A program made the translations under genes and the position numbers. Of a DNA stretch of 64,000 bases, positions 2,204 through 59,478 are shown in pieces (the first letter of the stretch is position 1; each line of letters opens with the position of its first letter). The notes beneath the pieces are model-generated. The model saw only the letters and a program-made list of their open reading frames with translations, did no database searches and was not told the DNA's origin. Origin of the DNA: a virus (Duplodnaviria > Caudoviricetes); IMG/VR virus record IMGVR_UViG_3300021431_000075, positions 480,001-544,000 of that record; one strand, written 5' to 3'.

Positions 2204-2234
2204 AGTATACTTGATATTGTTTGTTTAGTTTAAA
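2204..2234 (-). promoter_or_regulatory. Phage class-II promoter TTTAAAC-N18-TATACT
   Basis: Same motif and spacing at 8 intergenic sites; upstream of the uvsX operon. Confidence 0.75.
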
Positions 2235-2292
2235 AATCTTCAAACTAAAATTATAAAAATTTCCACAAAGTCAAATTCAAGAAAATGCATAA

Positions 2293-2301
2293 TGATAAAT
2301 A
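2293..2301 (+). promoter_or_regulatory. Late-promoter-like TGATAAATA
   Basis: Recurrent motif upstream of virion-type genes; resembles the T4 late promoter TATAAATA. Confidence 0.6.
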
Positions 2302-2427
2302 CAAAAAGCGAGCTGAACGTGTTTCGGCTTTGCGAAAAACGGAAAAACACATACTATTATATGTTGTTTCCGAGAGATTCGGAAAACCGAAACTAACCAA
2401 TTAAAAAACCAACAATTCACTTAATAA

Positions 2428-3219
2428 ATGGATACTGTTGAAATGTTTTATGGCGACTCGCCGCTTGTTAAAGTATCTTTCTCTTATGGAACCATAGAAG
2501 AAGCAGCAAACGACTTGACTCCGGGTGCTTTGTCTTTCGGCTATGATGAAGCAACTAAGGCTGGTGCTGTTTTCAGAGTTGGAAAACTCGTCTCATCAAA
2601 GGTTCTTGATGTTGTCATTTCTGATACAGAGACTGATGGTGTCGGTCTTGTGTCTGTCAAGTATATTGACTATGATGGAACCGTAAAGGTACACACGTTC
2701 AATTCTGTTTCAGAAAGTAAGATTAACGAACTCTCTCAGCAGATTGGCGAAGCAGGGAATACTTACACGCAAGGAAGATTTATTGTCATTTCTGACGAAA
2801 ATGAAATTAGTGTCAACTACGATGAACTGTACCAGAGTGTTAAGGATGAACTGGAAAATGACGGAATCGGAAGCGCAGATGCAATCATCGAGGCTTTCGG
2901 TAACAGACTTGCTGCGATAGAAGATGGTTATGTCAGTGGTATTGAAGAAGAAGTTGTCGAGGGTAATGACTACACGACCGTTAAGTTCACTACGAAGTCA
3001 AAGGAAGATGCTGCGTCTGAACCGACTGTTTCAACTGTGGAGATAAAGTCTCCGAATGCTGACTTTTATAACAAGGTCAATGATGCGATTGCTGAAATTG
3101 AAAGTCTCGATACTTCGGTGAACGCACGTTTGGGAGAGATAGAAAACGAGATAGAAAGCATTGACGTGAACACACTTGAGTGGATGAATGTTCACGACTT
3201 GCTGGAAAATTATGATTGA
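2428..3219 (+). CDS. Putative virion fibre/adaptor protein (paralog 1)
   Basis: Shares the N-terminal module (FGYDEAT..G....G..VSSKVLD) with the next two ORFs; acidic coiled coil; L-x-W near the C-terminus. Confidence 0.6.
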   Translation: MDTVEMFYGDSPLVKVSFSYGTIEEAANDLTPGALSFGYDEATKAGAVFRVGKLVSSKVLDVVISDTETDGVGLVSVKYIDYDGTVKVHTFNSVSESKINELSQQIGEAGNTYTQGRFIVISDENEISVNYDELYQSVKDELENDGIGSADAIIEAFGNRLAAIEDGYVSGIEEEVVEGNDYTTVKFTTKSKEDAASEPTVSTVEIKSPNADFYNKVNDAIAEIESLDTSVNARLGEIENEIESIDVNTLEWMNVHDLLENYD

Positions 3220-3260
3220 TTACGAAATACACAAAATGCTATAAAATATAAATTCTAATA

Positions 3261-5177: not shown

Positions 5178-5198
5178 AAAACTAATAATTTATTATAC

Positions 5199-5230
5199 AA
5201 AAGAGATGCAATAGAAATTGCATCTCTTTT
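5199..5230 (+). terminator. Rho-independent terminator
   Basis: AAAAGAGATGCAAT-AGAA-ATTGCATCTCTTTT hairpin followed by a T run. Confidence 0.8.
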
Positions 5231-5261
5231 TTTTATAGTCATTTTTGAGAAATGCGGAAAA

Positions 5262-5269
5262 GATAAATA
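5262..5269 (+). promoter_or_regulatory. Late-promoter-like GATAAATA
   Basis: About 30 nt upstream of the ORF starting at 5298. Confidence 0.6.
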
Positions 5270-5297
5270 TAAAAAGTAAAAAGTTATTCCAATAAAA

Positions 5298-6866
5298 ATG
5301 ATTCACAAACATTCGATAACAAAGAATATATTGGACGCAACTCCCGTGATTCTCGGTGCCGCACAAGGAAGCGATATGGTTACGTTTGCTTATGGTTCAC
5401 TCACAAAAGCACTCAATAGAACACAAAGTGGTGAAATCGAATTCGGTTATGATGAAGCAACTGGCGGTGGTCAGATTCTTGTCGGTGGTACGCCTGTGAC
5501 ATCCAAGATTCTCGACATTACATCTGTTCAGAAAGCAAATGCTTCTACAGGTGTAAAAACTATTACATTTACTTATGTAGATCCTGAACAAAAAGCAGGC
5601 ACTGGTAAAAGTACTTCAACATTTGAAGTAGTTGACGAGGCTGCCGCTAAGAGTTTTGTTACAGATTTAAGTACTGCACTTATCGGTGCTGCTAATGATG
5701 CATCCAGTCTTGATACAATTAATGCTGCTAAGAACTATGCAAAAGCCGCAGGTTGGACTATTGCTTATGATAATACTACTGATTCAAACAACCCAGTAAT
5801 TCAGTTGAAGAGTCAAGGTGGTACAGTAATTTCATCTATTTCAGCCAAAGCCTTTATCAAGGACGGTATGCTCAATTCAGCTACATTAGTTACTGAAAAA
5901 ACTGGTGAGGCGGCAGGTTCTGGTCCTTGGATTAAACTTACTTGGAATACAGATGCCGGTAAGGAAGATACTTATATTAATGTTCATTCGCTTGTTGATA
6001 CTTATACGACTGACAGAACAGACCAATTGTCAATTAGTGGTTATAAGATTAATCCTATAACTGCTGATCCTGCTGATTTGACAACCGGTACTCTTGATAG
6101 TTCAGCACTTGCTACTGCTGGACAAGTTAAGGCATATGTTGACGCAAAAGTTTCTGATAAGAATGTATCTGCTACTGGTGAAACTGGTGATAGTGCTCTT
6201 GTTACTGCATCTGCTAATAACAATGCAGTTACTGTTGGTTCTACTACAAAACTTCAGACTGCTGTTGATCTTGCTGAAACTGCTGTTCAGACTATATCAG
6301 AAGGTTCAAGCACCGAATCATATGTTGCTCTTACTGTTGGCACAAAGACAGATAGAGCTGTTGCAATCTCAATCAGTGATGCTGCTCTTGTAACAAAGAT
6401 TAATGCAATGGATGTATCTATTAACAATAACAATGCATCTATTGTTAGTCTTAATACATCAGTTAATGGATTAGAAACAAAAGTAAATGGTGGCTTATCA
6501 ACAGACAATGCAGATACTTATGTTAATGTTGCAATTGATTCTACAAATAAGTTCAAGATTGATGTAACTTCAAAAGAACCGCTTATAACTGCTGTTGCAA
6601 ATGCAAATAGTGCGGTTCAAAATGGTTCTGTTGGTACAAACGCAAAAGGGTTCTTGACTAATTCAAAAGGTACAGCAGGTACTGCTGATTCATCTAATTT
6701 GATTGTTAATTTTGTTAATGCTCCTATTAACACTTCTGCTAATCTTGGTGATTTGGGTTCTGGTGAAGGTACTACAACATTAGTAACTGCAAGAGCAATC
6801 AAGGATTTCGTAGATTCAAAGACTTCTGCTGCACTCAGTTGGATTATGCTTGACCCGCAATCATAA
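5298..6866 (+). CDS. Putative tail/head fibre protein (paralog 3)
   Basis: FIKDGML..., LATAGQVKAYVD fibre-like motifs; shared N-terminal module; ends ALSWIMLDPQS. Confidence 0.7.
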   Translation: MIHKHSITKNILDATPVILGAAQGSDMVTFAYGSLTKALNRTQSGEIEFGYDEATGGGQILVGGTPVTSKILDITSVQKANASTGVKTITFTYVDPEQKAGTGKSTSTFEVVDEAAAKSFVTDLSTALIGAANDASSLDTINAAKNYAKAAGWTIAYDNTTDSNNPVIQLKSQGGTVISSISAKAFIKDGMLNSATLVTEKTGEAAGSGPWIKLTWNTDAGKEDTYINVHSLVDTYTTDRTDQLSISGYKINPITADPADLTTGTLDSSALATAGQVKAYVDAKVSDKNVSATGETGDSALVTASANNNAVTVGSTTKLQTAVDLAETAVQTISEGSSTESYVALTVGTKTDRAVAISISDAALVTKINAMDVSINNNNASIVSLNTSVNGLETKVNGGLSTDNADTYVNVAIDSTNKFKIDVTSKEPLITAVANANSAVQNGSVGTNAKGFLTNSKGTAGTADSSNLIVNFVNAPINTSANLGDLGSGEGTTTLVTARAIKDFVDSKTSAALSWIMLDPQS

Positions 6867-7753: not shown

Positions 7754-7758
7754 ATTTT

Positions 7759-7843: not shown

Positions 7844-8230
7844 TTAAAAGCTATACATATCCTTTGGAGCTTCTAATGCAAGACCTTTTTGAATAAGCCC
7901 TCTATAATCGAGGAAATGAGCGTTAAGCCAATCTATAAATAATGAAGCGTCATATGCATGATTAATTCTTGTTAAGTAAAAATTGTATTGAGACTTTTCC
8001 TCCTCAGTCATTGACGAAATGGTTCTAAGATAAGGCTTAATCTCACTTATTTTATAAAAAGTATATGGGGTGAAATTAGAATCGCTAACAGGCGAAACTT
8101 GTATATTTTTGTGGCTAACCGACTCAATATATGCATCATATTTGATAGTTCCGTCAGTTACGGACACAATTATACCATATGAATATCTTGCACTGAGGTC
8201 TTTCAACAATTCTCTTTCTTCTTGTGTCAT
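7844..8230 (-). CDS. Hypothetical phage protein
   Basis: 128-aa ORF with IKPYLR.ISSMTEEE and DYRGLI.KGLALEAP motifs recalled from Bacteroidota phage hypotheticals. Confidence 0.75.
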   Translation of the reverse strand: MTQEERELLKDLSARYSYGIIVSVTDGTIKYDAYIESVSHKNIQVSPVSDSNFTPYTFYKISEIKPYLRTISSMTEEEKSQYNFYLTRINHAYDASLFIDWLNAHFLDYRGLIQKGLALEAPKDMYSF

Positions 8231-9432: not shown

Positions 9433-9921
9433 TTAGAATAGAGGGTCTGATGCAACTTCGTCGATTCTTTCGCTCATTCCCATGTTCGTGTAATAGTCAT
9501 CAAGTATCTCTGTTTTCATCTTGCATGATATGACTTTCTTTACGATGTAGTCATAGTTGAAGTCAAAGAATTCATTGATTGCTATGACTATCTCATATGC
9601 TGACAGAGTCTTTATCTTGGATAGATGTTCTTTCATGTAGTAGAACACCTTTGAGATATCTTCCTTCGGAATCTTGATTATTTTCGTTTCCTTGTCTGTA
9701 TAAGCTTCTGCGAATGGAGAGTTCTTGTATATCTCGTACAACTTGTTTGCTGTGTCTATCCTGTCTTGGTCAAGACTGATATCTTCTGTTATCGAGTAGT
9801 CATAACGGTCATACACCATCGGAGAAATCGCGATGGTCGAGTTGTTTAGCGATTCTGCATCTATTCCGCCGGTGAAGTAACCGTCGTTGCTTAACATCTT
9901 GGTCGTATTAATTCTTCCCAT
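9433..9921 (-). CDS. Hypothetical protein, possibly a T4 gp33-like late transcription co-activator
   Basis: C-terminal IVIAINEFFDFNYDYIVKKVISCKMKTEIL resembles the gp33 helical pattern by eye; follows the helicase. Confidence 0.4.
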   Translation of the reverse strand: MGRINTTKMLSNDGYFTGGIDAESLNNSTIAISPMVYDRYDYSITEDISLDQDRIDTANKLYEIYKNSPFAEAYTDKETKIIKIPKEDISKVFYYMKEHLSKIKTLSAYEIVIAINEFFDFNYDYIVKKVISCKMKTEILDDYYTNMGMSERIDEVASDPLF

Positions 9922-9967
9922 TTCTCATATGAGTCGATTTTTTTAAATAGATATGTTGTGTATTTAA

Positions 9968-11773
9968 TCACATCATTGGCGTCTGTGGAATGCCGTTTCC
10001 GGATGTATAATGGTACATGGTCTGTTTCTGCTCGCCTTGTTGGTTTTGATAACTTGCGGCATTGTCGTCAATATGATGGAATAGTGTCTTTTGTGGTGTC
10101 ATTACTCCGCCGAACAAATCTTGCGGAGTTTGTGGTATTGCCGGCTGCGGAGCAGTTGGTTGCCTCTGGATGACTGGCTGTGAAGGAAATGGAGCCATGT
10201 CCGGATCTGAAACAGGAATCTGTATTCCGTGATTCGAATCAAGCTGTCCGTATATGTCCGGATTGTCATTGAGAGACAGACCGTTCGGCATCGGGTTCTG
10301 TCCGTCCATAATAGGATTGAACTCGTTTATGGTAGCAGGCTGTGGCTGTATCGCCGGCATCGGCGCTGGGTTGCTTTTGCCTGAACCGGATAAGATTGTA
10401 TTTGTTGCGTCGAAACTTCCCGGAAGCGGAACAGTATCTGGAATGATTCCTTCTGACGGGTCTTCCTTGATGCGCATATAGTCTCCCGTGAACAGGTACT
10501 TCTTCTTGTCGCCCATGTTCGGAGAGTTTCGGAGCGCGATTGCCTTCAGGTAGTATATGCCGCTTGCTTTCATGACAGGAGTGCAAATGATACCGTATAG
10601 GCTATCGACAGTCGCGATAAGACCTGATGATTCGGCAACGGATGTCATGTCAAGGTCAGACGCGCCCATTCCTGCTCGGTTTGTCTGTGTCAGAGAGATG
10701 ACGCACCAGTCGTTTCTCTGTGCCATTGCTCGGATGTCCTCGCAAATGGACTTGATTTTCATATAGGTGTCCGGCGAGTTTCCGTATCTTGCATCAGCCA
10801 TGATGTTCACATAGTCGATGAACACGTTTCTGATTTTGAACTCCTTTCCTTCGATTGAGCGAGACTTCTCGACATTCAGGATGAATGATTCGATGTCATA
10901 GACAGTTGCTGATGAAGTTGGGAATTCTTCTACAATGAGCGCGCCGGGACCGAACATCGAGTTGGAGAACACAGATGAAAGACGTTGTTTCATCATGTTC
11001 AAGTCATCTGCATACTGGTCATAATCCCTAATTGGAATGCTCATCAGATTGGAGCCGATTCGGTGGTTCACAATCTGTACGGACATCTCAAGACTGATAT
11101 ATACGCAGTTGTCTCCGTTCAGGACTGAATTCGCGCACAGGTTACAGAGCCACATCGACTTTCCGACTTTTGGCGGTCCCATCAGCACGTTCAGCGTCTT
11201 CTTTGCCCAGCCTCCGTTCAAGCAGGTGTCCATGAACTTGTATCCGGTTGTTCGTGTCTCGACTTTCGACAGCTTGTGTTCCATCGGGTCGAAGAAGTCA
11301 TGACCGACTTTGTCTCCGAGAGTGAAGTTCGCATCCGAAGAGAACATCGTCTTGACTTTCTGGATGTATGTGTGAGCGCTTTCTGGAGTTACGTCATACT
11401 GCGTCTGCATCAGATAGCTGGACATCCTGTTCACCGCAACGATGAAGTTGTTCCACTCTGCAAATCCCTTTGTCGTGGAACGAAGCCAATCTTCTGCATA
11501 GTTGGACAGGTTTTTCCTACACGACCATATCGAACGGATGATGTCTCTCGGAAGTTCGGCAGTCTTTTCATTCTGCTGAATCAGAGTGTACACCATGTCT
11601 TCAGTAGGCTCTTCCTTGTATTCTATGATATATGGTTGGACCAACTCGAACAATTTCTTCAGGATGTCCTGCGAGAAGTATGTTGGCTTGAATATGGAAG
11701 CCATGTCATAGTTCTTGATGACATAGAAGAATATCAGTTGTTCGGTATAGTTATCTGTTGTAGTTACGTCCAT
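9968..11773 (-). CDS. Replicative DnaB/T4 gp41-like helicase with a Pro/Gln-rich C-terminal tail
   Basis: TGY..MD..LNGG, Walker A GPPKVGKS, YISLEMS, EFPT, FIDYVNIM, TQTNR, AESSG. Confidence 0.92.
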   Translation of the reverse strand: MDVTTTDNYTEQLIFFYVIKNYDMASIFKPTYFSQDILKKLFELVQPYIIEYKEEPTEDMVYTLIQQNEKTAELPRDIIRSIWSCRKNLSNYAEDWLRSTTKGFAEWNNFIVAVNRMSSYLMQTQYDVTPESAHTYIQKVKTMFSSDANFTLGDKVGHDFFDPMEHKLSKVETRTTGYKFMDTCLNGGWAKKTLNVLMGPPKVGKSMWLCNLCANSVLNGDNCVYISLEMSVQIVNHRIGSNLMSIPIRDYDQYADDLNMMKQRLSSVFSNSMFGPGALIVEEFPTSSATVYDIESFILNVEKSRSIEGKEFKIRNVFIDYVNIMADARYGNSPDTYMKIKSICEDIRAMAQRNDWCVISLTQTNRAGMGASDLDMTSVAESSGLIATVDSLYGIICTPVMKASGIYYLKAIALRNSPNMGDKKKYLFTGDYMRIKEDPSEGIIPDTVPLPGSFDATNTILSGSGKSNPAPMPAIQPQPATINEFNPIMDGQNPMPNGLSLNDNPDIYGQLDSNHGIQIPVSDPDMAPFPSQPVIQRQPTAPQPAIPQTPQDLFGGVMTPQKTLFHHIDDNAASYQNQQGEQKQTMYHYTSGNGIPQTPMM

Positions 11774-11832: not shown

Positions 11833-11863
11833 AGTATACATCAAAAAACGGCATTGGTTTAAA
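11833..11863 (-). promoter_or_regulatory. Phage class-II promoter TTTAAAC-N18-TATACT
   Basis: Upstream of the helicase. Confidence 0.75.
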
Positions 11864-12277: not shown

Positions 12278-13615
12278 TTAATTGGCTTTCTGTTTCGGCT
12301 TTTTCTCTATCTTGAATTTCTTGTCGATGTTCTTTGATATGTACTCGCCGTCGATGACAATCTTCTTCTTTTTGGATGAAGGAGCGTCATACATAATCTG
12401 CTTCATTATCTTTTCGACGATTGACCTGAGCGCGCGTGCGCCTGTGTCGCCCTTTGACGCCTCGTCCACGATGTAGTCAAGGACTTCATCCGTTATCGTC
12501 AGTTCCTTCTTGTCAAGAGTCAGCAGTTTTGTGTACTGCTTGATAATCGCGTTTTTAGGCTCTGTTAAGATACGCTTGAGAGATTCCTTGTCAAGCGGTT
12601 CCACATATGTTATGATAGGAAGGCGTCCCACGAGTTCAGGGATGAAACCGTAGTTTCGGATGTCGTTCTGCTCGACATACTTAATCGGATTGTCCTTGTC
12701 CGGTTTCTCTGAATCAGGCTCTGTGTTGAGGTCGAATCCGACGGTTTTCATGTTCATCCTTGACTTGATGATTTCCTCGATTCCGATGAACGCGCCACCG
12801 AATATGAACATGATGTTCTTCGTATTGACTTTTATCATCTTTGCTTCCGGATGCTTTCTGCCGCCCTGTGGCGGAACAAGAACATCTGTTCCTTCAAGCA
12901 TTTTAAGCAATGCTTGCTGCACTCCTTCTCCGTTCACGTCTCTCGTGATTGACGAGTTCTTTGACTTTTTCCCGAGTTTGTCGCCCTCGTCCAGATAAAC
13001 GATTCCGCATTCTGCTTTCGCCACGTTGTAGTCGCATACTTGAAGAAGTCTTGTAAGGATTGACTCGACATCTTCCCCGACATATCCGGCTTCTGTGAAC
13101 ACGGTCGCGTCGGCAATACAGAAAGGCACGTCAAGAAGTTTTGCAAGTGTCTGCACGAGAATTGTCTTTCCGCTTCCGGATGGACCGCAAATGAGAATAT
13201 TTGACTTGTCTATCTGAACATCGTCTTCTGATGCCGATTCCGGTTGATGGATTCTCTTATAGTGGTTATACACCGCTACTGCAAGAGACTTTTTTGCTTC
13301 TTCCTGTCCGATGACATATTGGTCGAGATATGCCACGATGTCATGTGGCTTTGGAATCTTGAATTCTTTGGAAACTTCCGAAATCGGTTGCTTGTTCGAT
13401 TCCTCATACTCGTCCATTTCTTCAAATTCATAGTTGTCTAATGAACCGTGAGTCGCCTGTATGTGTTCGCTCAGGTTTGCAAGAGTCTGGATGCACTCGT
13501 CGCATATCATGCTTGACGAGTTTACACCTTTGAACATGTACTTCACTTCTGTTCGTGACTTGCCGCAGAAACTGCAGACATCTATTGGAATGTTGTTGTC
13601 TTTCTGTTCGCTCAT
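12278..13615 (-). CDS. clpX: ATP-dependent Clp protease ATP-binding subunit ClpX
   Basis: CSFCGK..ICDEC zinc domain, [50 protein letters not shown] loop, GARALR. Confidence 0.96.
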
Positions 13616-13698
13616 AGTTTATTTTGGAGAAATCTCTTGTTGTTTTATTTATTGATTAAATTTCTTTGGTTCATTGCAGAGAACTGAGAATCCATATA

Positions 13699-13729
13699 GT
13701 TTTACATTAAATTTTGTCGATAGTTTAAA
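13699..13729 (-). promoter_or_regulatory. Phage class-II promoter variant TTTAAAC-N18-TAAAAC
   Basis: Same spacing; upstream of clpX. Confidence 0.6.
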
Positions 13730-14406: not shown

Positions 14407-14418
14407 GTTTTGATGTTG

Positions 14419-14450
14419 CAAAGTTAAGAACTATTTTTGTTTCAAGCAAA
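14419..14450 (-). promoter_or_regulatory. Bacteroidota sigma-A promoter TTTG-N20-TAACTTTG driving the tRNA
   Basis: Canonical -33/-7 pair just upstream of the tRNA. Confidence 0.75.
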
Positions 14451-14744: not shown

Positions 14745-14954
14745 GATTTCAATTTTTTGATTAAATATAAATTTCAGTACAAAGATATGATGTTTTTTCG
14801 ATTAAGAGACACAAAATCGAGAATTTTTGTCGATTAACTCTGCAAATTTAAGGATTTTTTTCTAAATTGCAAAATTGCATATTTCAAAATTGCAATATAA
14901 ATGGCGACTATTATCAGAAACAGCCGCCATTGTGTTTATTTTGCTTTGTCTGAA

Positions 14955-19386: not shown

Positions 19387-20409
19387 TTATATACCCAGTT
19401 CCTCGTCCAAATCCAGGGTGAAAATTGCCTTGAGTCCGCCGCGAAAGTTGAGCGGAGTCTCCTGCTCCGCGCCGCTACTGTCGTTGTATGTCATCTTCGG
19501 AGTGATTGCTTGTTCCAGTGCCGACTTGACTTTCGATATGAGAGACCAGTCTCTTATCGTATAGTTCATCGACTGTGACACAAGGTCGCTGTACGTCTTG
19601 TCCGATAGTTTCTTATAGTCGCTTACAAGAATCTGCGCGATTCTTATGAAGTCACGGTCAAACGGCTCTTGCATAGCCTGCTTCTTTGAGATGTACGTCT
19701 TGAACCACTGGATTGTTCCGATGGACGGTATATAGAAGTTCAACTGGTTTCTTTGAGGATTGTCCGACCTGAATGTAAAGCATCTCTTCTCCTCGTTATA
19801 GTACTTGAGGAGCCAGTCCGGAAGGTCTATGAAAGAAATATTGTCTTTCTTCACGATGACTGTGTCGTTCTCATTGAGGTTGATTTTCAGTTCATTGTGA
19901 CCTTCTGGGAAAGTGAAGTCCCTGATTGCAAGAATGATGTACAATCTGTCGATATCCTTGAGGTCTTTCCATTGTCCGATTCCGTATTCGGACGGGAACG
20001 AGATGATGCAGCAACGCTCGATGATGTAGTTGAGCGCGTCGTCAATCTCGGAAACATCCTTATCATCCATCATCGACCAGTGCCTGATGTCCGCTCCGGA
20101 TGCCGCACGGATGCTGATTTTTGTTCCGTTCGGATAGAATATGCCTCCGGATGGAAGGTCTTCGGTCGGAATCTGAATCCATCCGAGACCGAGTTCTCTT
20201 GTCTCGTTGAGAATCTCTTCGCGGCGGTTCTGCTGTGCCTCTGCAAGAGACATCTTCTCTACCGGCGGTTCCGGAGATTGTCCTTGTGGTTGCGAATTGC
20301 CGACTTTGGTAGCAGGACTCACGTTGCTTGATGCAGCGCGTTCTTGCTCTTCTTTCTTGGCATATTCCGCCATCACTTCTTCAATGGTTTTCTTTTGCTT
20401 ATCAGCCAT
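19387..20409 (-). CDS. Baseplate hub assembly / tail assembly chaperone-like protein
   Basis: DLPSGGIFYP...ISIRA..., DL..IDRLYIILAIRD.TF pattern typical of T4 gp26/gp51-like proteins. Confidence 0.65.
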   Translation of the reverse strand: MADKQKKTIEEVMAEYAKKEEQERAASSNVSPATKVGNSQPQGQSPEPPVEKMSLAEAQQNRREEILNETRELGLGWIQIPTEDLPSGGIFYPNGTKISIRAASGADIRHWSMMDDKDVSEIDDALNYIIERCCIISFPSEYGIGQWKDLKDIDRLYIILAIRDFTFPEGHNELKINLNENDTVIVKKDNISFIDLPDWLLKYYNEEKRCFTFRSDNPQRNQLNFYIPSIGTIQWFKTYISKKQAMQEPFDRDFIRIAQILVSDYKKLSDKTYSDLVSQSMNYTIRDWSLISKVKSALEQAITPKMTYNDSSGAEQETPLNFRGGLKAIFTLDLDEELGI

Positions 20410-20515: not shown

Positions 20516-20546
20516 AGTATACAACAAAAGTGTTGGAAAGTTTAAA
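20516..20546 (-). promoter_or_regulatory. Phage class-II promoter TTTAAAC-N18-TATACT
   Basis: Exact motif and spacing. Confidence 0.75.
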
Positions 20547-25483: not shown

Positions 25484-26164
25484 TTATAAATTCGTCATAA
25501 TGATTTGTGTCACAAGTTCATTGAGTTGCTCTGGGGCTTTCGTCCAGAATTCTTCATAAGTTGCTGCAGTGTCATTTAGAACAGCATCACTCACGATTCT
25601 TACAGAAACGAAAGGTTTTGAGTATCTGTAGCAAGTTTGTGCAATCGAAGCGGACTCCATGTCGATGCCTATCGAGTTCATAAAGTTGTCATATATGGCA
25701 ATAGCCTTGTATTTTGTATCTACAAACCAGTCTCCGCTAACCACATAGCCTTTGTGTATGTTGAACTTCTTGTCCAGTTTGCTTGTGTCTATGTCGATGC
25801 ATTTGAACTTTGCTGGAAGATCTTGAACTTGTCCCAAGTCGTTCGGCACGCCGCACCACATATCATGGTATCCGACTTCTTCCGCTATGATGAAGTCTCC
25901 CGGAATGATTCCGTTTGGCTTCAGAGTTCCGCACACTCCGCTTGATATGATGAAATCTACATTGAATGTCTCAATCATCTTCATCGTGCAAAGTGCCGAG
26001 TTCACTTTTCCTATTCCGGACTTTGACACTATGATTATGTGTTCATCGTCAACAGAACCGATATAGAAGTCGAATAACCCCTTATTCTCATGGACTAATG
26101 AAAACTTGTTCTTGAAAAGTTCAAGTTCTTTGTCCATTGCTACTATTAAACCGATTGATTTCAT
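25484..26164 (-). CDS. mtnN: 5'-methylthioadenosine/S-adenosylhomocysteine nucleosidase
   Basis: IGLIVAMDKE, SGIGKVNSA, SGDWF, DMESASIAQTC, R.VSD. Confidence 0.92.
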   Translation of the reverse strand: MKSIGLIVAMDKELELFKNKFSLVHENKGLFDFYIGSVDDEHIIIVSKSGIGKVNSALCTMKMIETFNVDFIISSGVCGTLKPNGIIPGDFIIAEEVGYHDMWCGVPNDLGQVQDLPAKFKCIDIDTSKLDKKFNIHKGYVVSGDWFVDTKYKAIAIYDNFMNSIGIDMESASIAQTCYRYSKPFVSVRIVSDAVLNDTAATYEEFWTKAPEQLNELVTQIIMTNL

Positions 26165-26185: not shown

Positions 26186-26216
26186 AGTATACAGAAAAAT
26201 AGCGGTTTGGTTTAAA
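26186..26216 (-). promoter_or_regulatory. Phage class-II promoter TTTAAAC-N18-TATACT
   Basis: Directly upstream of mtnN. Confidence 0.75.
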
Positions 26217-29278: not shown

Positions 29279-29341
29279 GGAAAAACGATATTGTACATAT
29301 TAAGATATTTATCGTTTTCTGCCGAGCGAAAGCCTTTTTAA

Positions 29342-34171: not shown

Positions 34172-34254
34172 AATGGAAATGACCTGAATTTTCTTGTTAT
34201 GTATTTATCAAAAAATAGAGCAGAATGCCATATTGCATCCTGCTCTATCTGTTC

Positions 34255-37149: not shown

Positions 37150-37286
37150 TAGAAACCAAGAGGATATACATTTTTGTATTTATCAAATATGAGAGTTTTG
37201 TCTTGTTTTTAAAGCATAAAACAAGACAAGTTCTTGAATTGCTTTTTGCATGGTTCAAGAACTTGTCCATTTGTTATTTTTGAAAT

Positions 37287-38513
37287 TTAGATGAATATCG
37301 GCATCCCTTCGTCCAGCGGTCTTGTATTGCTTAGTTTCTTCTCCAAGTCGCTGAATACTGCCGCTGTGAGCGCTTTCTTCTTGTTCGCGCCCTCGTATTC
37401 TGTTCCTTTCAGAAGTTCTTGCGCTCTCATGTTCTGGAATGATGTTCCGGAACAGTTTCTTACCATATAGTCGATGGTTTCCTTGTAGTCGCATATGTAC
37501 TTCGGAAACATCTCGCTGTTCAGTTCAACAAGCTGTCTCTGTCGCAGCAGTCTTTCGTTATAGTCTATGTCATCGACATGCTTCTTGCAAATCTTGTCAA
37601 GAGCGTCCGGCATCTTGTTGATGTTCTCTACAAGAGATTGAACGCTGTCCGAACCTGTCTGCTCCAGAATCTTCTTTGCTTTCAGCGGAGTTATTCTTAT
37701 AAGCTTTCCGTTCTTGTAGTAACCGTAGAATGACGGAACATTGTCTCCGTCATCTCCGCACAGAATCTTGTTCAGAACCACCATGTTCGGATTGTCCGGA
37801 TAAAGTTCGATAATGGAATTCGTTCTTATAAGTTCTTTTACGTAGTATTTCTGCGGGTCGAAACTCGTGAAGAATATGTCATTCACTTCAGGCTCGTTAT
37901 ACCAGTCCATGAACTCCTTTGTTACATACATTCTTCGGTTGCTGTTCTTTCCGCGGCCTGTCGTGTTATACACGACGCAGAACTGCTTCGTCTCCTTGTT
38001 GAATGATATGAGCTGCCTGATATCCGCATCTGCGCTGACAATGATTATATTGTAGTCCGGATGCTTCTCGAAAACGTCTTCCTTGATGAGCGCGATGATG
38101 TCATCGGCTTCTGCATGCTCGACATTTGCCACGTGCATATTCCTTTTTCTGAGAATCTCAAGTAAGTCGTCTGAACACTTGTATATGTTTTCCCAGTTCA
38201 CGTTCGGATCCTTGTCGCGATTGCTCTTGTAACCGTCTGATCCGGGAAGAATGTTCTTTCTCCATGCATGCTGCCCGTCTGTTGCTATGATGATGTTGGA
38301 CGGGTTGAACATGTTGATGACAGAGCAGACGTCAACAGCAAACTTGTTCGTGAATGACTTGAGATCCTCTTCAAGCTCGTAGCCGCTGACGACATGACCG
38401 AAGATTTTGTGTATGTACAGACTCCTGAACATCAGGTTCGACCAGTCGATGACCAGCAGAACCTTGGAGTTTGCCACATTGATATTTGTATTCAAATTAT
38501 TAGTTATCATCAC
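37287..38513 (-). CDS. rnh: T4 RNase H-like 5'-3' exonuclease (FEN/PIN fold)
   Basis: LVIDWSNL, WRK.....YKSNR, EADDII, VSADAD..QL, KILCGDDGDNVP. Confidence 0.88.
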   Translation of the reverse strand: MMITNNLNTNINVANSKVLLVIDWSNLMFRSLYIHKIFGHVVSGYELEEDLKSFTNKFAVDVCSVINMFNPSNIIIATDGQHAWRKNILPGSDGYKSNRDKDPNVNWENIYKCSDDLLEILRKRNMHVANVEHAEADDIIALIKEDVFEKHPDYNIIIVSADADIRQLISFNKETKQFCVVYNTTGRGKNSNRRMYVTKEFMDWYNEPEVNDIFFTSFDPQKYYVKELIRTNSIIELYPDNPNMVVLNKILCGDDGDNVPSFYGYYKNGKLIRITPLKAKKILEQTGSDSVQSLVENINKMPDALDKICKKHVDDIDYNERLLRQRQLVELNSEMFPKYICDYKETIDYMVRNCSGTSFQNMRAQELLKGTEYEGANKKKALTAAVFSDLEKKLSNTRPLDEGMPIFI

Positions 38514-38547
38514 TAATATTTACGATTTCTCTATTTATTGTTAAAAA

Positions 38548-38578
38548 GGTATACTAACGGTTTAACAAAAAGTTTAAA
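38548..38578 (-). promoter_or_regulatory. Phage class-II promoter TTTAAAC-N18-TATACC
   Basis: Upstream of the RNase H gene. Confidence 0.72.
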
Positions 38579-42179: not shown

Positions 42180-42557
42180 TTAATCAGCAGATTCTGTCTG
42201 AATTATCTCTGGTTCTGCTGTTTTCTTGCGTTTCTTTGCGGTCGGTTGCTCTTGTGGGAACTCCGGTGCCATCATGTTTACTTTGTTCGCGCCGATGGAC
42301 GATGATATTGACTTTATGCCCATCAGACCGGCTGAAATTCCGAACACTGTGATGATCTTGTCAATGAACAGGAGAATCACTGCCGACTCCTTGACATTGA
42401 ACATATAGAAAATCACAAGAACAACAAACAGCATCATGCATACAAGCGATGAAATGAGACCGATAGTCTTTGTGGAACTTGTCTTTCCGCTGTTGTTCAG
42501 GAATATCTCAACCAGAGAGAATTTTGTTGCATCATATGGCATGGCAAAAGTCATCAT
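42180..42557 (-). CDS. Two-TM membrane protein, holin-like candidate
   Basis: N..GKTSS.K motif followed by two hydrophobic helices and a charged tail; TGATAAATA at 42564-42572. Confidence 0.55.
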   Translation of the reverse strand: MMTFAMPYDATKFSLVEIFLNNSGKTSSTKTIGLISSLVCMMLFVVLVIFYMFNVKESAVILLFIDKIITVFGISAGLMGIKSISSSIGANKVNMMAPEFPQEQPTAKKRKKTAEPEIIQTESAD

Positions 42558-42562: not shown

Positions 42563-42724
42563 CTATTTATCAATAGAAGGAACCAAAATGCGGATTATAG
42601 TGAATAAATGCTTCTTTAACTTGACAAATTTTATATATGCTTTTGGATGAAATGTCTTGATTTCATAAATCCACAAGTCGAATGACTGTGGAATGCTGAA
42701 GCCTTTCAATATGTATTTTATCAT
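42563..42724 (-). CDS. Unannotated 53-aa ORF (MIKYILKGFSIPQSFDLW...)
   Basis: Read manually; starts 28 nt downstream of the class-II promoter. Confidence 0.4.
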   Translation of the reverse strand: MIKYILKGFSIPQSFDLWIYEIKTFHPKAYIKFVKLKKHLFTIIRILVPSIDK

Positions 42725-42751: not shown

Positions 42752-42782
42752 AGTATACTATATAATGTACAAATAGTTTAAA
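42752..42782 (-). promoter_or_regulatory. Phage class-II promoter TTTAAAC-N18-TATACT
   Basis: Exact motif and spacing. Confidence 0.72.
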
Positions 42783-47230: not shown

Positions 47231-47238
47231 CAAAGATA
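47231..47238 (-). promoter_or_regulatory. Bacteroidota sigma-A -7 element (TATCTTTG)
   Basis: 36 nt upstream of the VWA gene, downstream of a terminator-like hairpin at about 47285-47322. Confidence 0.6.
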
Positions 47239-47337
47239 CAAAGATTGATTGATATAAACAATATTATTAATCCTAAAAAATACTAAAATGCCAGTCATTT
47301 ACCAAAAAACAACTGGCATTTTCAAAATATTTAATTA

Positions 47338-51493: not shown

Positions 51494-51667
51494 CTTTATT
51501 TCATTTCTTTTTTTCTTATTTTATATATCAATCTCTATTTTCAATAGAGATTTTTTTCATTCATTTTGCAAATATAAAGAAAAAAATTAAGTCTGCAAAA
51601 AATTGTTAATTTTTTTGCAGACTTTTGATGTTTATGGTTGGAAATTCAATCGTTTAGAATGATTTCA

Positions 51668-54408: not shown

Positions 54409-54882
54409 TTATTGTTCTTCTTCAACTTCAAAATTTTCAAGATTTGTAGATGGTTTCTTGCTCTTTCTTCCGTTCTTTGACGGACTCTTTTTCTCTTGAC
54501 TGTTTTCAACAGGTTCTCCGTCAAGCATGTATATGTTTCCTATTTGCAGCGTTTCCGGTTCTTCCATAATCGAGTTAGAGTCTATCGACTGTATATTTAG
54601 AATCTGTGAGAAAGATGCTTCGAACTTTTCGATTCTTTGCGTCAGGTTATTGAGTTGCTCATTGATTTTCACGAACTCGTCGCTGTTGTTGTTCTTCAAA
54701 TCTTCGTAGTTGACAGACAGTTCATCGAACTTCTCGTTGACTGTATCAACAGAATCGACAAGATCTCCGATGCCTTTCTTTTTGCCGCCGAGAATTACAA
54801 GAACAAGCATAATTATCTGAACTACAAATACTAATAATATTAATGTCGTTTGTAGTCCGCTGCTTAATAAAAGTGTTACCAT
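54409..54882 (-). CDS. Membrane-anchored coiled-coil protein
   Basis: N-terminal hydrophobic helix followed by a coiled coil; overlaps the M13 gene stop. Confidence 0.65.
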   Translation of the reverse strand: MVTLLLSSGLQTTLILLVFVVQIIMLVLVILGGKKKGIGDLVDSVDTVNEKFDELSVNYEDLKNNNSDEFVKINEQLNNLTQRIEKFEASFSQILNIQSIDSNSIMEEPETLQIGNIYMLDGEPVENSQEKKSPSKNGRKSKKPSTNLENFEVEEEQ

Positions 54883-56894
54883 AATTTCGCTCTTCTTTCT
54901 TTGTTTATATATAATTTATCATTCTTGCTTATTTTGAATGCTGAATACCACTCGTCGAACATCGGAAGTGTGCCGTTCACCCTGATGTAGTTGGGGCAAT
55001 GCTCGTCATTTTCTATTCTGTGCTTGATGACTTCTTCTGTCGATACGCCAGCCCAGCAGTTTGCAAAGTTGAGGAAGAAACGCTTCTTCCAGTCATAGCC
55101 GTCCTTCATCATTCCGTTCTTTCCGTACAGTTCTGCTTCGCTGAACATCGGTTCTCCGCGGTCATCTTTCATTGCAAGCAGTTCAGACAGGTATCGAACT
55201 TTTTCACCGTATATCATCTTAAGCGCGTTGTATGCAATCTTGAGACCGCCAAAGTCTGCGATATTCTCATTCAGCGTCAAGTCTCCGTTGCACTTGATTC
55301 CGGGAAGCGCGTAAATCTCGTTGAAATGGTCTCTTGTGTTCTCGGATAGTTCGTCGAACTCCTCACTTTCATCATCAGTCCACCAGTCGAACACGTTTCC
55401 GTCTATGCCGAACAGTCTTCCATAACTGTCAAAGCCGTGTGTCATCTCATGACCGATAATAACACCTATGCCCCCATAGTTGTCCGAATCATCCGCATCC
55501 TTGTTGAAGAACGGTTCCTGCAATACAGCTGCAGGAAAGCAAATCTCGTTCTTCATCGGACTGTAGCATGCATTGACTTTGTGTGCATACATCGGCCACT
55601 CTTCCATATCAACATCCTTGTCGAAATAGTCATTGATATATCTATTGTGAGAATATACCATAATCTCCCTTGTCATCTCGAAGTATGACACGTTGCTATT
55701 GACCGGCATGTCGGTATAGTCTTTCCACTTGTCCGGATAACCGACCTTGCACTTCATCATGGAAAGTTTCTTCAATGCATAGTTCTTTGTTTCCGGACAA
55801 AGCCATGACTGGTTTGATATGATTTCAGCATAACTTTTCTTAAGGTTTTCTATCAATAAAATCATCTTGTCTTTCGACTCTTTCGGAAAGAATTTCTCTA
55901 CATACTTCTGTGCAAATGTCTCACTGAAGAAACTTTCAACTTTGTCAAGTTCGCGTTTCCACAGTTCAGGTCTCTCTTTGACGCCGGTCATGAACTGAAT
56001 GAACTCGAATGCGATTTCTTCTATGTCAACTCTTAATGTATCTTTATAATTATCAATAAGATGGAAGATTGCATTGTCTTTCATCTCGACAAGAGTCATC
56101 GTGTTAATCAGTTCAAATGCTTTCTTGATGGCATCAACTTGAGCGATGTTCACTTTCTTCACATCGTTCATTCCGAACCAAGACAAATACTTGTTCAAAT
56201 CAAACTCGACAAGCTTGCTTGCTTCCTCTATATCCATCATATGATAGTTATACATCGGGTCCATGCACAGTTCTTCGATGCTGTATGAAACTTCCGCTAT
56301 CTGGCAGTCAAAGTCAATAACAGTGTCTATGATTCTGTCTATGTCGTTTTTCTGGAAATTGAGGGCAGTTAGAATATCAACCTTGTTCTTTGCAAACTTC
56401 TTCAGAACTTCTTGCTTGTACGGGTCGTTTGATGTGTAATATGACTTGTTGTTCAGAAGGAGCTTCTGTGAAAGCATCACTTCATAGTGGTTCGAATTCT
56501 TGAAATCCGGGACACACTCGACGCATAGCAAGAAATTGTATGCAAGTTCTTTCTGGCAGAATTCAATGACTTCGTCTTTTGTGTTGAAAGACATTATCTT
56601 GTTGATGTACGGAAGCATGACACGTATTCCTTCCGAGTCTCTTTTGTCATAGTTGGACATCGTCTTGTAGAATGTTGCAATCTTGTATGACATGACATCC
56701 CCGCCGCCGGGATTCTTAACAATCTCGTCAAGAATTTCCCGGTTCTGCTGTCTGACTTTGTTCTCTATGACATTCCAGCAGTCCCATTGTGCTTCGTCAT
56801 CAGGTTTCGGATTCAACTCAATCCACTTTCCGGTAGCAAACTTGAAAAAGTCGTCACCGGGCTTTATGTCATTATTAATATACTCTTTGTTCAT
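54876..56894 (-). CDS. pepO: M13 family zinc endopeptidase (PepO/neprilysin-like), no signal peptide
   Basis: PGDDFF...G.W, VGYPDKW, VNA.Y.P..NEI.FPA, GHEMTHGFD, ENIADFGG, R.NG. Confidence 0.93.
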   Translation of the reverse strand: MNKEYINNDIKPGDDFFKFATGKWIELNPKPDDEAQWDCWNVIENKVRQQNREILDEIVKNPGGGDVMSYKIATFYKTMSNYDKRDSEGIRVMLPYINKIMSFNTKDEVIEFCQKELAYNFLLCVECVPDFKNSNHYEVMLSQKLLLNNKSYYTSNDPYKQEVLKKFAKNKVDILTALNFQKNDIDRIIDTVIDFDCQIAEVSYSIEELCMDPMYNYHMMDIEEASKLVEFDLNKYLSWFGMNDVKKVNIAQVDAIKKAFELINTMTLVEMKDNAIFHLIDNYKDTLRVDIEEIAFEFIQFMTGVKERPELWKRELDKVESFFSETFAQKYVEKFFPKESKDKMILLIENLKKSYAEIISNQSWLCPETKNYALKKLSMMKCKVGYPDKWKDYTDMPVNSNVSYFEMTREIMVYSHNRYINDYFDKDVDMEEWPMYAHKVNACYSPMKNEICFPAAVLQEPFFNKDADDSDNYGGIGVIIGHEMTHGFDSYGRLFGIDGNVFDWWTDDESEEFDELSENTRDHFNEIYALPGIKCNGDLTLNENIADFGGLKIAYNALKMIYGEKVRYLSELLAMKDDRGEPMFSEAELYGKNGMMKDGYDWKKRFFLNFANCWAGVSTEEVIKHRIENDEHCPNYIRVNGTLPMFDEWYSAFKISKNDKLYINKERRAKLW

Positions 56895-56929
56895 CGAATA
56901 ATGAATGTAACTTATCTTTCTTTGTTTGT

Positions 56930-57919
56930 CTAAAACAGAGGCTGTGAGTGTACGAGATTGTTCGGTATTTGCTGGTATCCGAGAATGTCAAGGACTTTGT
57001 TGCAGAATGACAATATTGTTTTCTCGAACTGAATATCCATGTCTATGCTGACTCTGAACTCTCCCGGAAAACTCCCCGGAACATAGGCAAATACTTCATA
57101 AGGGTTGTTTGCTGCATTTGAATAGAACCACTTGATTTTATCAGCATTCTTAATCGGGTTGTATTTTACTTTGTACTTCTTGTTCTCCGGCTTGTTCAGG
57201 AAGTAGTTGTACACTCCTGCGGCCTTGATGTGAGCCGGACACTTGTCTGCAATCACAAGCTCTCCCTTGTCTTTCAGTATGTAGTTGTCATAGTTTCCGA
57301 CGGATGAGCCGAACGAAATCATATCCGGGTCCTTGTACTCGAAATCGGCTTTATATTTCTCTATTTTTCCGACAAGCATGTCAAGACTGAGTTTCTCGTC
57401 GTTGTCACGGTACCAGTCAAGAACGAACTTGACGAAGTCCTCCATGCATTCGCGTGCGTATTCGGACGTAGAACTCTTTACAATCTCAAGTCCCTTGTAT
57501 AGAATATGAGAGCCTTTCGGCAAGTAGATGTTAGGCTCCTCCCAGCATTTTGACATCGCATATCTTTTCTTTGCAAAAAGCAGAGTCGTGTCCGCTATCT
57601 TCTCGAGCTCAAGATTCTGTATGTTCTTGTCACAGTTGTATTCTTTTGCATACTCTTCATATTTATTATTCATGTACGGTCCGAGAGAATAGTTCCACAA
57701 GTCAACAACGAACTTCGTTTGATCTTCTTTTGGAACATTGCACCATTTCAAGATTCTTCCGAACTCTACATAAATCGAGTTGTGGACGAGAATTTCGTTC
57801 GCAAAAAACATATGGGTTTCGCCGACTTCGATGTCATATACATATTCATCATCAAAGTCCGGAAGCACTTCGATGCTTTTTATATTTTCTACCTTATAAT
57901 TTGTTTGACTAAAATCCAT
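56930..57919 (-). CDS. DNA polymerase B C-terminal fragment fused to split-intein C-half
   Basis: YVYDIEV...H.FFAN.ILVHN|S intein end, then SIYV, LELE, KKRYA, KGLEIVKSST; ATG at 57919 (the ORF track starts at a TTG at 57931). Confidence 0.92.
   Translation of the reverse strand: MDFSQTNYKVENIKSIEVLPDFDDEYVYDIEVGETHMFFANEILVHNSIYVEFGRILKWCNVPKEDQTKFVVDLWNYSLGPYMNNKYEEYAKEYNCDKNIQNLELEKIADTTLLFAKKRYAMSKCWEEPNIYLPKGSHILYKGLEIVKSSTSEYARECMEDFVKFVLDWYRDNDEKLSLDMLVGKIEKYKADFEYKDPDMISFGSSVGNYDNYILKDKGELVIADKCPAHIKAAGVYNYFLNKPENKKYKVKYNPIKNADKIKWFYSNAANNPYEVFAYVPGSFPGEFRVSIDMDIQFEKTILSFCNKVLDILGYQQIPNNLVHSQPLF
57779..57919 (-). mobile_element. Split intein C-fragment (about 47 aa)
   Basis: Blocks F and G with terminal His-Asn followed by Ser+1. 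Confidence 0.9.
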
Positions 57920-57989
57920 GATTTTTAACAATTAAAACATAAGCAAATAAACTTATAATGTGAAAATATAAGTATTTTCGCTTATAAAT

Positions 57990-58355
57990 TTAGACAGGAA
58001 TCTTGATGTACACGGGAATGTAATCCGTTTGACCTTTTTCTTTGAACAAGATAAACAAATAGTCGGTATCGAATTCAATATCGTTTGTTTTGACAGGATG
58101 CTCATCATCCAGCAAGTCAACATTCACGACGGTTTCTGAAGTTGCTCCGTTCGTGTCTGTGTACTGGATGATTTTGCCGCTCAATGAACCATGTGAATCA
58201 TCAAGAACGCTAAATCTCGTCACATAGTAGTTCTTGATCTCATATTTGCTTTTGTCTGCATCAAAAAACAAGTCATTTGAACCATTTGACATTTCGATTG
58301 TAATGCCTTCTTTTTCATTGCGTATCTTGTACTTTGAAGTTAGCGGATTTTCCAT
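57990..58355 (-). CDS. Hypothetical protein inserted between the split-intein halves
   Basis: 121-aa ORF; no HNH, LAGLIDADG or GIY-YIG motif visible. Confidence 0.7.
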   Translation of the reverse strand: MENPLTSKYKIRNEKEGITIEMSNGSNDLFFDADKSKYEIKNYYVTRFSVLDDSHGSLSGKIIQYTDTNGATSETVVNVDLLDDEHPVKTNDIEFDTDYLFILFKEKGQTDYIPVYIKIPV

Positions 58356-58365
58356 AAATTTAATT

Positions 58366-59409
58366 TTAAATTGTTATTATCTTGTCGGTTTCCGGATTTA
58401 TTTCTTGCGCAGTAACTGATATGAGAATTCCGTCCCTGACGACCATGCAAGAGTGATCTCCTGTCACGATGACTTCTTTGCCGGATTCTGTTGTTATCTT
58501 GTACTTTGACTTCTTGACCTTATGTCGCATGATGTATCTGATTTGTTTATCACAAACTGTATCTGTGCTTGCGTCATATGTCTTTGTCGTTAATGTGATG
58601 TCTGACGGCGCAGGTACGACTTGGGTTCCGTTCGGAAGCATTATTACAGTATCAATGTTCATGTACTTGATTGCAGCGAAAGCGTCTTTGATTGCTATCT
58701 TTTCATCATTTATATCAATAACCGAGTTCCCGTCAATGCTGTCTGTGTCTCCTGCCACGCTTAATGATTCAGTTCCGTCAAGATAATCATATTCTGGACC
58801 GGTCAAAGGCTTTGATTCCGTTGTCTTTCCCTTTGATATGTCGAATGTTCTTGCAAGTTCGGGATTGACTTTTAGTTTGTCCCATAATTTCGCATTTCTC
58901 TTGAACCAGTCGCAGTGACCTTGGCTGTTGTCCTTGATGCATCCGATTAGATCCGGCGTCAGTCTCTTTCCCTTTTTGACAGCAGGGACATAGCTCTCGC
59001 ATTCTTCCCATGTTCCGCTGGCATAATAGTCTTCCGGCTTTTCTTTTGAACCGAAGTCAAAACGTTTTCCATCTTTGTCTATGTGAATCCACTGGTAATG
59101 TAGAATAATGTCCGGATTGCTTTGAAAGATTCCGCTAAAGTACCTGTTCACAGAGTTCTCCGAGAAGTGGTTCAGGTCTCTTCCTTGCGCTGTAATGCTT
59201 TCTGCTATTGCCGTATTGTGTGCAAAGAAGTGCTTACTTCCCAATGCGCCATATACCGAGTTGATGAACTTCTTGATGGCAAGCTGCTTTGTCTCGAAGT
59301 ATCCGGCACGGCTGTGCAAGTCAACGACTTGTTTCTTCAATTCTTCTATTGGACAGTCATACGGATTCTTGAGCCACGCATACTTGAATTTGTCTATTTT
59401 ATTGTCCAT
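58366..59409 (-). CDS. DNA polymerase B fingers/palm fragment fused to split-intein N-half
   Basis: Motif B QLAIKKFINSVYGALG, AESITAQGR, AGDTD| then intein block A SIDGNSVI and block B VIVTGDHS. Confidence 0.92.
   Translation of the reverse strand: MDNKIDKFKYAWLKNPYDCPIEELKKQVVDLHSRAGYFETKQLAIKKFINSVYGALGSKHFFAHNTAIAESITAQGRDLNHFSENSVNRYFSGIFQSNPDIILHYQWIHIDKDGKRFDFGSKEKPEDYYASGTWEECESYVPAVKKGKRLTPDLIGCIKDNSQGHCDWFKRNAKLWDKLKVNPELARTFDISKGKTTESKPLTGPEYDYLDGTESLSVAGDTDSIDGNSVIDINDEKIAIKDAFAAIKYMNIDTVIMLPNGTQVVPAPSDITLTTKTYDASTDTVCDKQIRYIMRHKVKKSKYKITTESGKEVIVTGDHSCMVVRDGILISVTAQEINPETDKIITI
58369..58740 (-). mobile_element. Split intein N-fragment (124 aa)
   Basis: Ser1 directly after GDTD; TxDH block B; ends at a stop codon with no endonuclease domain or block G. 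Confidence 0.9.
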
Positions 59410-59447
59410 TTTTGCTTTTTTGAAAACCGATAAAAACTAAACCATCT

Positions 59448-59478
59448 ATTTTACAAAAAAAATGCCGAAAAGTTTAAA
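59448..59478 (-). promoter_or_regulatory. Phage class-II promoter TTTAAAC-N18-TAAAAT
   Basis: Upstream of the polB N-fragment gene. Confidence 0.7.

Follow-up and report, generated by a model that had tools for sequence, protein, structure and literature searches.

The 64,000-nucleotide stretch of DNA analysed here, referred to as the window, corresponds to positions 480001-544000 of one contig of 673,114 bp, the genome of a tailed phage of the rumen (Duplodnaviria; Caudoviricetes) recorded in IMG/VR as IMGVR_UViG_3300021431_000075. The genome has direct terminal repeats, is rated 100% complete in IMG/VR, is 40.6% GC, uses the standard genetic code, and contains 650 genes as called with an ad hoc dicodon model trained on long open reading frames (ORFs). 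Several genes of the window with presumed roles in DNA replication and related functions are preceded by a rigidly spaced bipartite element, TTTAAAC-N17-GTATACT in its commonest form, which we designate class 1 and which is the subject of this report.

Class-1 sites in the window and the genome

A scan of the window with the pattern TTTAAAC-N18-TAWAMY yields exactly eight matches, all on the minus strand, whereas 0.01 are expected from dinucleotide-preserving shuffles (Table 1). An initial annotation, made from the letters of the window, had listed these same eight sites, and each lies at the position and on the strand that it gave; the G that it noted ahead of the TA is present at 8/8. The upstream box itself, TTTAAAC, occurs nine times in the window compared to 13.3 expected, with 9/9 copies on the minus strand. 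The eight promoter sites account for all but one of these; the remaining copy (29417-29423) falls within a 1609-aa ORF and lacks a -10 box.

Reading on from the eight sites, the first genes of any size encode a RecA/UvsX-like recombinase, a DnaB-like helicase, ClpX, a PNP_UDP_1 (MtnN-type) protein, a 5'-3' exonuclease of the T4 RNase H type, and a fragment of a family-B DNA polymerase (PolB), together with a 340-aa protein of unknown function and small ORFs. Pfam matches agree with the first five of these labels as originally assigned. Two others had to be altered: the gene at the head of the proposed 'hub/chaperone operon' belongs to phrog_36717, function unknown, and the label is not confirmed, and the gene called 'polB-N' encodes, according to Pfam, a middle PolB fragment fused to the N-terminal half of an intein.

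Strict class-1 sites number 34 in the complete genome, and 30 of them are wholly intergenic, compared to 0.25 expected in shuffled intergenic DNA. All 34 have a spacing of 18 between the boxes, and no other spacing from 10 to 26 is represented by more than two sites; likewise, a one-base variant of the upstream box is found at the correct distance from GTATA(C/A)T at only one site genome-wide. A position matrix reads TTTAAAC-Y-W-W, is rich in T at 4-8 nt ahead of the second box, and closes with G-TATACT, the G being present in 90% of sites. These features are best explained by a consensus TTTAAAC-Y-W-W-N9-(T-rich)-N3-GTATACT, in which AAAC would be the -35 core and GTATAC the -10 core.

When the second box is relaxed to (G)TAnnn(T/C) there are 44 intergenic sites, about 43 of which we count as regulon units. 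Forty-one of the 44 face a co-directional gene starting 7-182 nt downstream (median 37 nt). Two sites that fit only the loosest pattern, one at 479967-479997 (+) with a poor second box and one at 81332, are probably there by chance. The site at 173148-173178 ends 13 nt before a tRNA-Arg(TCT) gene at 173060-173134, and its transcript would therefore start within those 13 nt, consistent with normal -10 to +1 geometry. At 401785-401860 two class-1 sites stand back to back, with 14 nt between their TTTAAAC boxes and genes departing on opposite strands. A comparable frequency of the motif in coding or antisense DNA, named beforehand as evidence to the contrary, was not seen, and that class-1 sites are promoters is near certain. 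Avoidance of the boxes within coding DNA was considered separately; the depletion is only moderate, and its size varies with the model used (TTTAAAC, 54 observed against 71-115 expected; GTATAC, 50 against 64-98), and we make no claim of it. Scanning IMG/VR with the exact pattern TTTAAAC-N17-GTATACT gave scattered single matches among the matches listed and was uninformative.

The proposal that the element marks replication and accessory genes is supported beyond the window too, the sites being almost all intergenic, sense-oriented, rigidly spaced and conserved in relatives (see below). Pfam and PHROGs matches place class-1 sites ahead of genes for the N-terminal PolB fragment, a clamp-loader-like ATPase, UvsW-, UvrD- and XPD-like helicases, a gp32-like single-stranded DNA-binding protein, and SbcC/Rad50- and Mre11-like proteins. 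Others precede genes for five DNA methyltransferases (four C5 and one N6/N4), S-adenosylmethionine (SAM) synthetase (MetK), formate-tetrahydrofolate ligase (FTHFS), a GMP-reductase-like protein, a fucosyltransferase and ClpP. One further gene of note, 62 nt behind the site at 459144-459174, encodes a 129-aa gp55-like late sigma factor (phrog_234, 5.8e-11). We infer both the 'middle' timing of this regulon and the identity of the protein that reads it from the features described in the following sections.

A candidate sigma factor and the other promoter classes

The genome has two sigma-like genes. One encodes the gp55-like protein, which contains region 2 only, and the other, at genome coordinates 633132-634052, encodes a 306-aa protein that is the only phage product with both sigma regions 2 and 4. 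It had been predicted that a phage-encoded sigma factor or activator reads the sites; a sigma70-family gene does exist, outside of the window, and no activator of the MotA/AsiA type was found, searches of the genome with MotA (PF09114) and AsiA (PF09010) being negative. Family searches with valid controls also failed to find RNA polymerase beta or beta' in the genome. The T7-type polymerase family was not found either, but its control was without signal anywhere, making this search uninformative. A Pfam search for the gp45 clamp C-domain was negative.

The 306-aa protein matches PF04542 (region 2) at 8.8e-12 over residues 90-151, and passes the extracytoplasmic function (ECF) sigma model TIGR02937 with 51.9 bits against a cut-off of 42.9, aligning to positions 5-161 of 165 and thus spanning regions 2 and 4. 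PF04545 (region 4) alone is a weak match (E 0.014-0.0016), and a homologue (P0007) has both r4 and r4_2 matches. Among PHROGs the protein matches phrog_1740 ('RNA polymerase sigma factor'). The NCBIfam model that fits it best is the Bacteroidetes ECF subfamily TIGR02985, although at 63.6 bits it does not reach the cut-off of that model, and its best matches in the PDB are SigW and SigL, with B. subtilis SigW at the top. Pfam gives no r1 or r3 match; the protein does, however, begin with an acidic extension of about 85 residues that is unmodelled, and it also has a linker of about 45. An AlphaFold2 model built from a seven-sequence alignment has the region-4 bundle of four helices at residues 198-266, with predicted local distance difference test (pLDDT) values of 74-86.

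Upstream of the sigma gene there is a terminator-like hairpin followed by a host-type promoter, TTTG-N17-TATCTTTG, which suggests that the gene is expressed early by the unmodified host polymerase. The nearest class-1 site (636403-636433) precedes the preceding gene. Adjoining the stop codon of the sigma gene in all relatives is a conserved 166-aa gene (genome 632630-633130, minus strand), the product of which ends in a hydrophobic tail. Searches of this protein against Pfam, PHROG and NCBIfam gave no match, and no anti-sigma domain is recognisable in it. Its position suggests a putative anti-sigma factor or cofactor. A predicted complex with sigma residues 60-290 scored 0.25 relative to a mark of 0.32, and is evidence neither for nor against this.

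Homologues of the sigma factor, at 98, 77, 68, 49, 44 and 42% identity, are encoded on rumen and other metagenomic contigs; the contigs of relatives used here are from the STEW18/STEW19 rumen samples. A search of IMG/VR with the sigma found no related locus, and 12 kb of the window had no match among GenBank phages by megablast. DnaB homologues include closer relatives as well as Lak-type megaphages in which TAG is recoded as glutamine (TAG=Q), at 53% identity. Class-1 sites are present at syntenic places in contigs with 68-77% identical sigmas and in a contig carrying DnaB and ClpX (L170), where the counterpart of the window site before the DnaB-like gene is at 9906-9936, and that of the clpX site, with GTATACC as its second box, is at 8058-8088. 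Across six syntenic comparisons the first box is 100% identical, the second 90%, the spacer 73%, and the flanks 57-59%. Upstream of the sigma gene, a host-type promoter is likewise present in L120-122, L123-125 and L166/L168, which are three groups of relatives.

The promoter element changes in the more distant lineages. Relatives with 68-98% identical sigmas keep TTTAAAC...GTATAC, whereas lineages with 44-49% identical sigmas have sites reading nnnAAACTA-N..-GTATAAT before the orthologous ClpX-like, DnaB, PolB and 276-278-aa genes. These sites retain AAAC and its distance to the second box, but have neither the upstream TTT nor the C of TATACT. The region-4 recognition helix contains HDAKN in the sigma described here and SRVKN or SKVKN in those of 44-49% identity. 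Comparison of these sequences suggests that the sigma and the promoter motif co-vary across lineages.

K-mer enrichment in upstream regions reveals two promoter classes in addition to class 1. The first has the consensus (A/G)ATAAATA (RATAAATA); its intergenic sites number about 158, most of them 18-32 nt ahead of a start codon, and in a sub-class of about 32 the box is longer and reads ATAAATATCTTATAATA. Extended boxes of this kind occur also in a relative (L172; GATAAATATCTTATAAAT) and in a Lak-type contig (L173; GATAAATATCTTGATAAT). This class resembles the T4 late promoter and fits the gp55 family. The T4 late promoter is a single TATAAATA-type -10 element without a -35, and class 1, being bipartite, is not of this type. 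The second is the host-type Bacteroidota consensus TTTG-N19-TAnnTTTG, for which 33 of 47 sites are intergenic though intergenic DNA constitutes 9.6% of the genome. Class 1 differs from these promoters within the same genome, in agreement with the earlier proposal that it is not of the host type. The three classes are interleaved in the window, and the clpX and exonuclease genes have both a class-1 site and a late box; at clpX the late box (AATAAATA, 13646-13653) is between the class-1 site and the gene, and at the exonuclease gene it is directly behind the class-1 site (38532-38539). A Prevotella-like host is suggested by the host-type promoters in combination with the kinship to Lak phages and the fact that the relatives are from rumen.

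Table 1. Class-1 promoters, the genes behind them and other elements; coordinates are those of the window unless given as genome positions
Feature	Position	Strand	Remarks
Class-1 promoter TTTAAAC-N17-GTATACT	2204..2234	-	28 nt before ATG at 2175 of small ORF 1927-2175
RecA/UvsX-like recombinase gene	668..1945	-	Pfam RecA, 1.4e-18; comes after small ORF 1927-2175
Class-1 promoter, GTATACT	11833..11863	-	59 nt before DnaB-like gene
DnaB-like replicative helicase gene	9968..11773	-	Pfam DnaB_C, 8.1e-15
Class-1 promoter, weaker -10 box GTAAAAC	13699..13729	-	83 nt before clpX
ClpX gene	12278..13615	-	Pfam AAA_2, zf-C4_ClpX, ClpB_D2-small
Class-1 promoter, GTATACT	20516..20546	-	106 nt before 340-aa gene 19387-20409 (phrog_36717)
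Class-1 promoter, GTATACT	26186..26216	-	21 nt before gene 25484-26164
Nucleoside phosphorylase/MtnN-type gene	25484-26164		PNP_UDP_1, 1.7e-33
Class-1 promoter, GTATACC	38548..38578	-	37 nt before 5'-3' exonuclease/RNase H-type gene 37287-38510
Class-1 promoter, GTATACT	42752..42782	-	27 nt before small ORF 42563-42724; then 42180-42554 and further genes
Class-1 promoter, weaker -10 box GTAAAAT	59448..59478	-	38 nt before gene 58366-59409
Middle PolB fragment with intein N-half	58366..59409	-	Pfam DNA_pol_B, Intein_splicing
Late box (example)	2294-2301	+
Late box (example)	5262-5269	+
Late box (example)	29306-29313	-
Late box (example)	34202-34209	-
Late box (example)	37177-37184	-
Host-type promoter	14408-14450
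Host-type promoter	14843-14874
Host-type promoter	47231-47261
Host-type promoter	51569-51600
ORF-less element with promoter	genome 585714-586020	-	element part 585714-585983
ORF-less element with promoter	genome 643562-643830	-	element part 643562-643784
Related element copy	genome 117443-117601	-	directly 3' of an IS607-type tnpB gene
Related element copy	genome 200983-201134	+	directly 3' of an IS607-type tnpB gene

Reading of the class-1 regulon

We favor the interpretation that the class-1 regulon is read by the phage ECF-type sigma factor as the second step of a three-step relay, and consider this to be probable. Because no RNA polymerase was found in the phage, the host core enzyme presumably transcribes from class-1 sites. 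Host sigma-A promoters would drive the early genes, that for the ECF-type sigma among them, and the 306-aa sigma would then direct the host core polymerase to the class-1 sites, turning on about 43 units for replication, recombination, nucleotide and SAM/folate metabolism, the five methyltransferases, ClpX and ClpP. The same sigma would turn on the tRNA, two ORF-less RNA-like elements and the gp55-like late sigma, and the latter would read the approximately 158 RATAAATA boxes. We infer the assignment of sigma to sites, and the order of early, middle and late expression, from sequence.

Relays of phage sigma factors are known in principle, and it is the promoter class and its regulon that are new. 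SPO1 gp28 (a middle sigma), phiEco32 gp36 and the sigmas of phage 7-11 are phage sigma factors made early from host-type promoters (PMC4331800, PMC13401047), and the arrangement here is alike in having a phage sigma gene under a host-type promoter, while the genes of the replication phase are preceded by uniform promoters of a class of their own. As in SPO1 and phiEco32, the host core polymerase would be redirected to uniform bipartite promoters of replication-phase genes, with a further sigma for late genes. It differs from both in that the sigma is of the ECF type, the genome is 673 kb, the relay is predicted from sequence, and the host is one of the Bacteroidota, whose own promoters (-33/-7) are very different; the late step, unlike that governed by SPO1 gp33/34, is of the T4 type (gp55-like, RATAAATA).

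ECF promoters typically combine AAC as the core of the -35 with T-tracts and a spacer of fixed length, as in tgaAACntttt...CGTA/CGTC for B. subtilis SigW/SigX/SigV (PMC5758882). Class 1 (ttTAAACt...tGTATAC) shares with these promoters, and with those of E. coli RpoE, the general layout, the T-rich tracts and a short G/T-containing -10, and has an invariant AAAC with spacing fixed at 18. It differs in having GTATAC rather than CGTA/CGTC, and in the upstream extension of the -35 by an invariant TTT. Among phages, the T4-like 'group 2' jumbo phages, which include Lak, possess two sigmas, one minimal and one fuller, and no RNA polymerase (Iyer et al. 2021, PMC7824862), and the phage described here belongs to the same broad group, with its gp55-like protein, its fuller sigma and no RNA polymerase. 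Unlike the TAG=Q-recoded Lak-type phages it uses the standard code at 40.6% GC. The Lak papers PMC6784885 (Devoto et al. 2019) and PMC8346664 mention sigma factors, and the word 'promoter' is absent from their text.

Several points weigh against the assignment of class 1 to the ECF-type sigma. The phage is uncultured and the case is built on sequence, with gene starts that depend on an ad hoc gene caller. The -10 box GTATAC is not of the classic ECF CGT type, and it contains TAnnnT, so that a reading by a primary-like sigma is compatible with the sequence. No class-1 copy is located directly before the sigma gene, unlike the case for most ECF sigmas, and there is thus no sign of autoregulation. 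The AlphaFold2 model has a mean pLDDT of 53, exceeds 74 only in the region-4 part, and is too weak for a fold search. Lastly, the co-variation of sigma and promoter concerns few sites on few short contigs, and L123/L124 and L171 are taken to be a single phage solely on the grounds of a shared sample.

T4 controls the same class of genes by MotA/AsiA sigma appropriation, and the foremost alternative is that the host primary sigma (Bacteroidota sigma-A) is remodelled in a similar manner by an unrecognised TTTAAAC-binding phage activator. T4 middle promoters serve genes of replication, recombination and nucleotide metabolism as well as gene 55, and this phage has T4-like replication and late-transcription modules, most of its 650 genes are without known function, and the -10 box fits a loose TAnnnT. 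However, no MotA or AsiA homologue and no MotA box, which in T4 is at -30, are found, and appropriation retains a host-type -10, whereas that of class 1 is GTATAC(T) and not the TAnnTTTG that the genome uses about 33 times. The host consensus also does not explain the conserved G before TA or the C at hexamer position 5, and leaves a complete phage sigma without any other obvious regulon. We therefore regard appropriation of sigma-A as unlikely. A dedicated sigma appears instead to take over the role of MotA/AsiA, which suggests that in T4-like giant phages infecting Bacteroidota an ECF-type sigma does their job.

A second alternative is that a host ECF sigma reads the sites, with the phage copying the promoter of a host stress regulon and its own sigma serving another purpose. 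Bacteroidota carry many ECF sigmas, and because the phage sigma best matches TIGR02985, albeit below the cut-off, there may be host sigmas of similar specificity. Yet a lytic program of about 43 promoters would then rest on a normally inactive host factor, the motif changes between phage lineages along with the sequence of the phage sigma, and no promoter class would be left for that sigma, as the remaining classes fit host sigma-A and gp55. The chance that this explanation is correct seems small.

Divergent phage RNA polymerases such as those of phiKZ and crAss-like phages escape Pfam models, and an unrecognised single- or multi-subunit enzyme of the phage could in principle read class 1, the control for the T7-type search having been uninformative. 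Against this, the beta and beta' searches were negative with valid controls, the bipartite -35/-10 layout with 18-bp spacing is typical of sigma factors, and the T4-like group including Lak has been placed among the jumbo phages that have sigma factors and lack RNA polymerase (PMC7824862); we consider a hidden polymerase very unlikely. That the element is instead a binding site for a repressor or for a replication or packaging protein is hardly credible, for despite the 6-bp palindromes in both boxes (TTTAAA and GTATAC), as are found in operators and restriction/modification sites, the element as a whole is strongly asymmetric and always sense to the next gene, its distances to start codons and to the tRNA 5' end (13 nt) fit a promoter, and it also heads RNA elements that have no ORF.

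The analysis yields a testable transcription map for an uncultured Lak-related megaphage. It comprises promoters of three classes, the middle one having a candidate sigma and a regulon of approximately 43 units. In related metagenomic contigs the class-1 motif can help in the annotation of middle genes and small RNAs, and a compact sigma/promoter pair unlike the -33/-7 promoters of Bacteroidota is a possible orthogonal expression switch for Bacteroides or Prevotella.

Putative orphan RNA elements and the divided DNA polymerase

Two near-identical elements of about 300 nt, neither containing an ORF, lie behind perfect class-1 sites at genome positions 585990-586020 and 643800-643830. They fold with a z-score of -2.4 and match no Rfam family. 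Because the core of the element recurs 3' of two IS607-type tnpB genes (Table 1), they look like orphan TnpB omega-RNA genes. The two IS607-like units, each with a serine-recombinase TnpA and a TnpB, are located at genome 117609-119994 (-) and 198553-200977 (+), TnpA and TnpB being confirmed in one of them. Each has, 31 nt before tnpA, a class-1-like site with a weak -10 box, TTTAAAC-N17-GTAACAT. The insertion sequence appears to be adapted to this phage-specific type of promoter.

In one of the ORF-less elements, 14 nt at the place predicted for the guide match two late promoters, with an overlap of the extended late-promoter sequence TTTTCAAAATAAAT. We do not take this match as targeting of late promoters, as these 14 nt, read on the other strand of the element, themselves make up a late-type box and the match may be coincidental. 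It is doubtful that the class-1 regulon includes an RNA-guided layer, in which TnpB loaded with middle-phase guide RNAs would target or regulate DNA, possibly the phage's late promoters, and we give this idea little weight.

The family-B DNA polymerase is divided into at least three pieces: an N-terminal piece with the exonuclease domain, a middle piece with the N-terminal half of an intein, and a third with the C-terminal half of the intein and the remainder of the polymerase. The gene for the N-terminal piece (genome 478274-479863) is just before the window and has its own class-1 site. That for the third (56930-57919, minus strand) begins with the intein C-half and carries the rest of PolB, and is the partner of the middle fragment at 58366-59409; from their sequences the two are a candidate split-intein pair. 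A 121-aa ORF is situated between these two PolB pieces, and downstream of the polymerase fragments there is a full-length gene for an M13 (neprilysin-type) metallopeptidase (window 54876-56894, minus strand).

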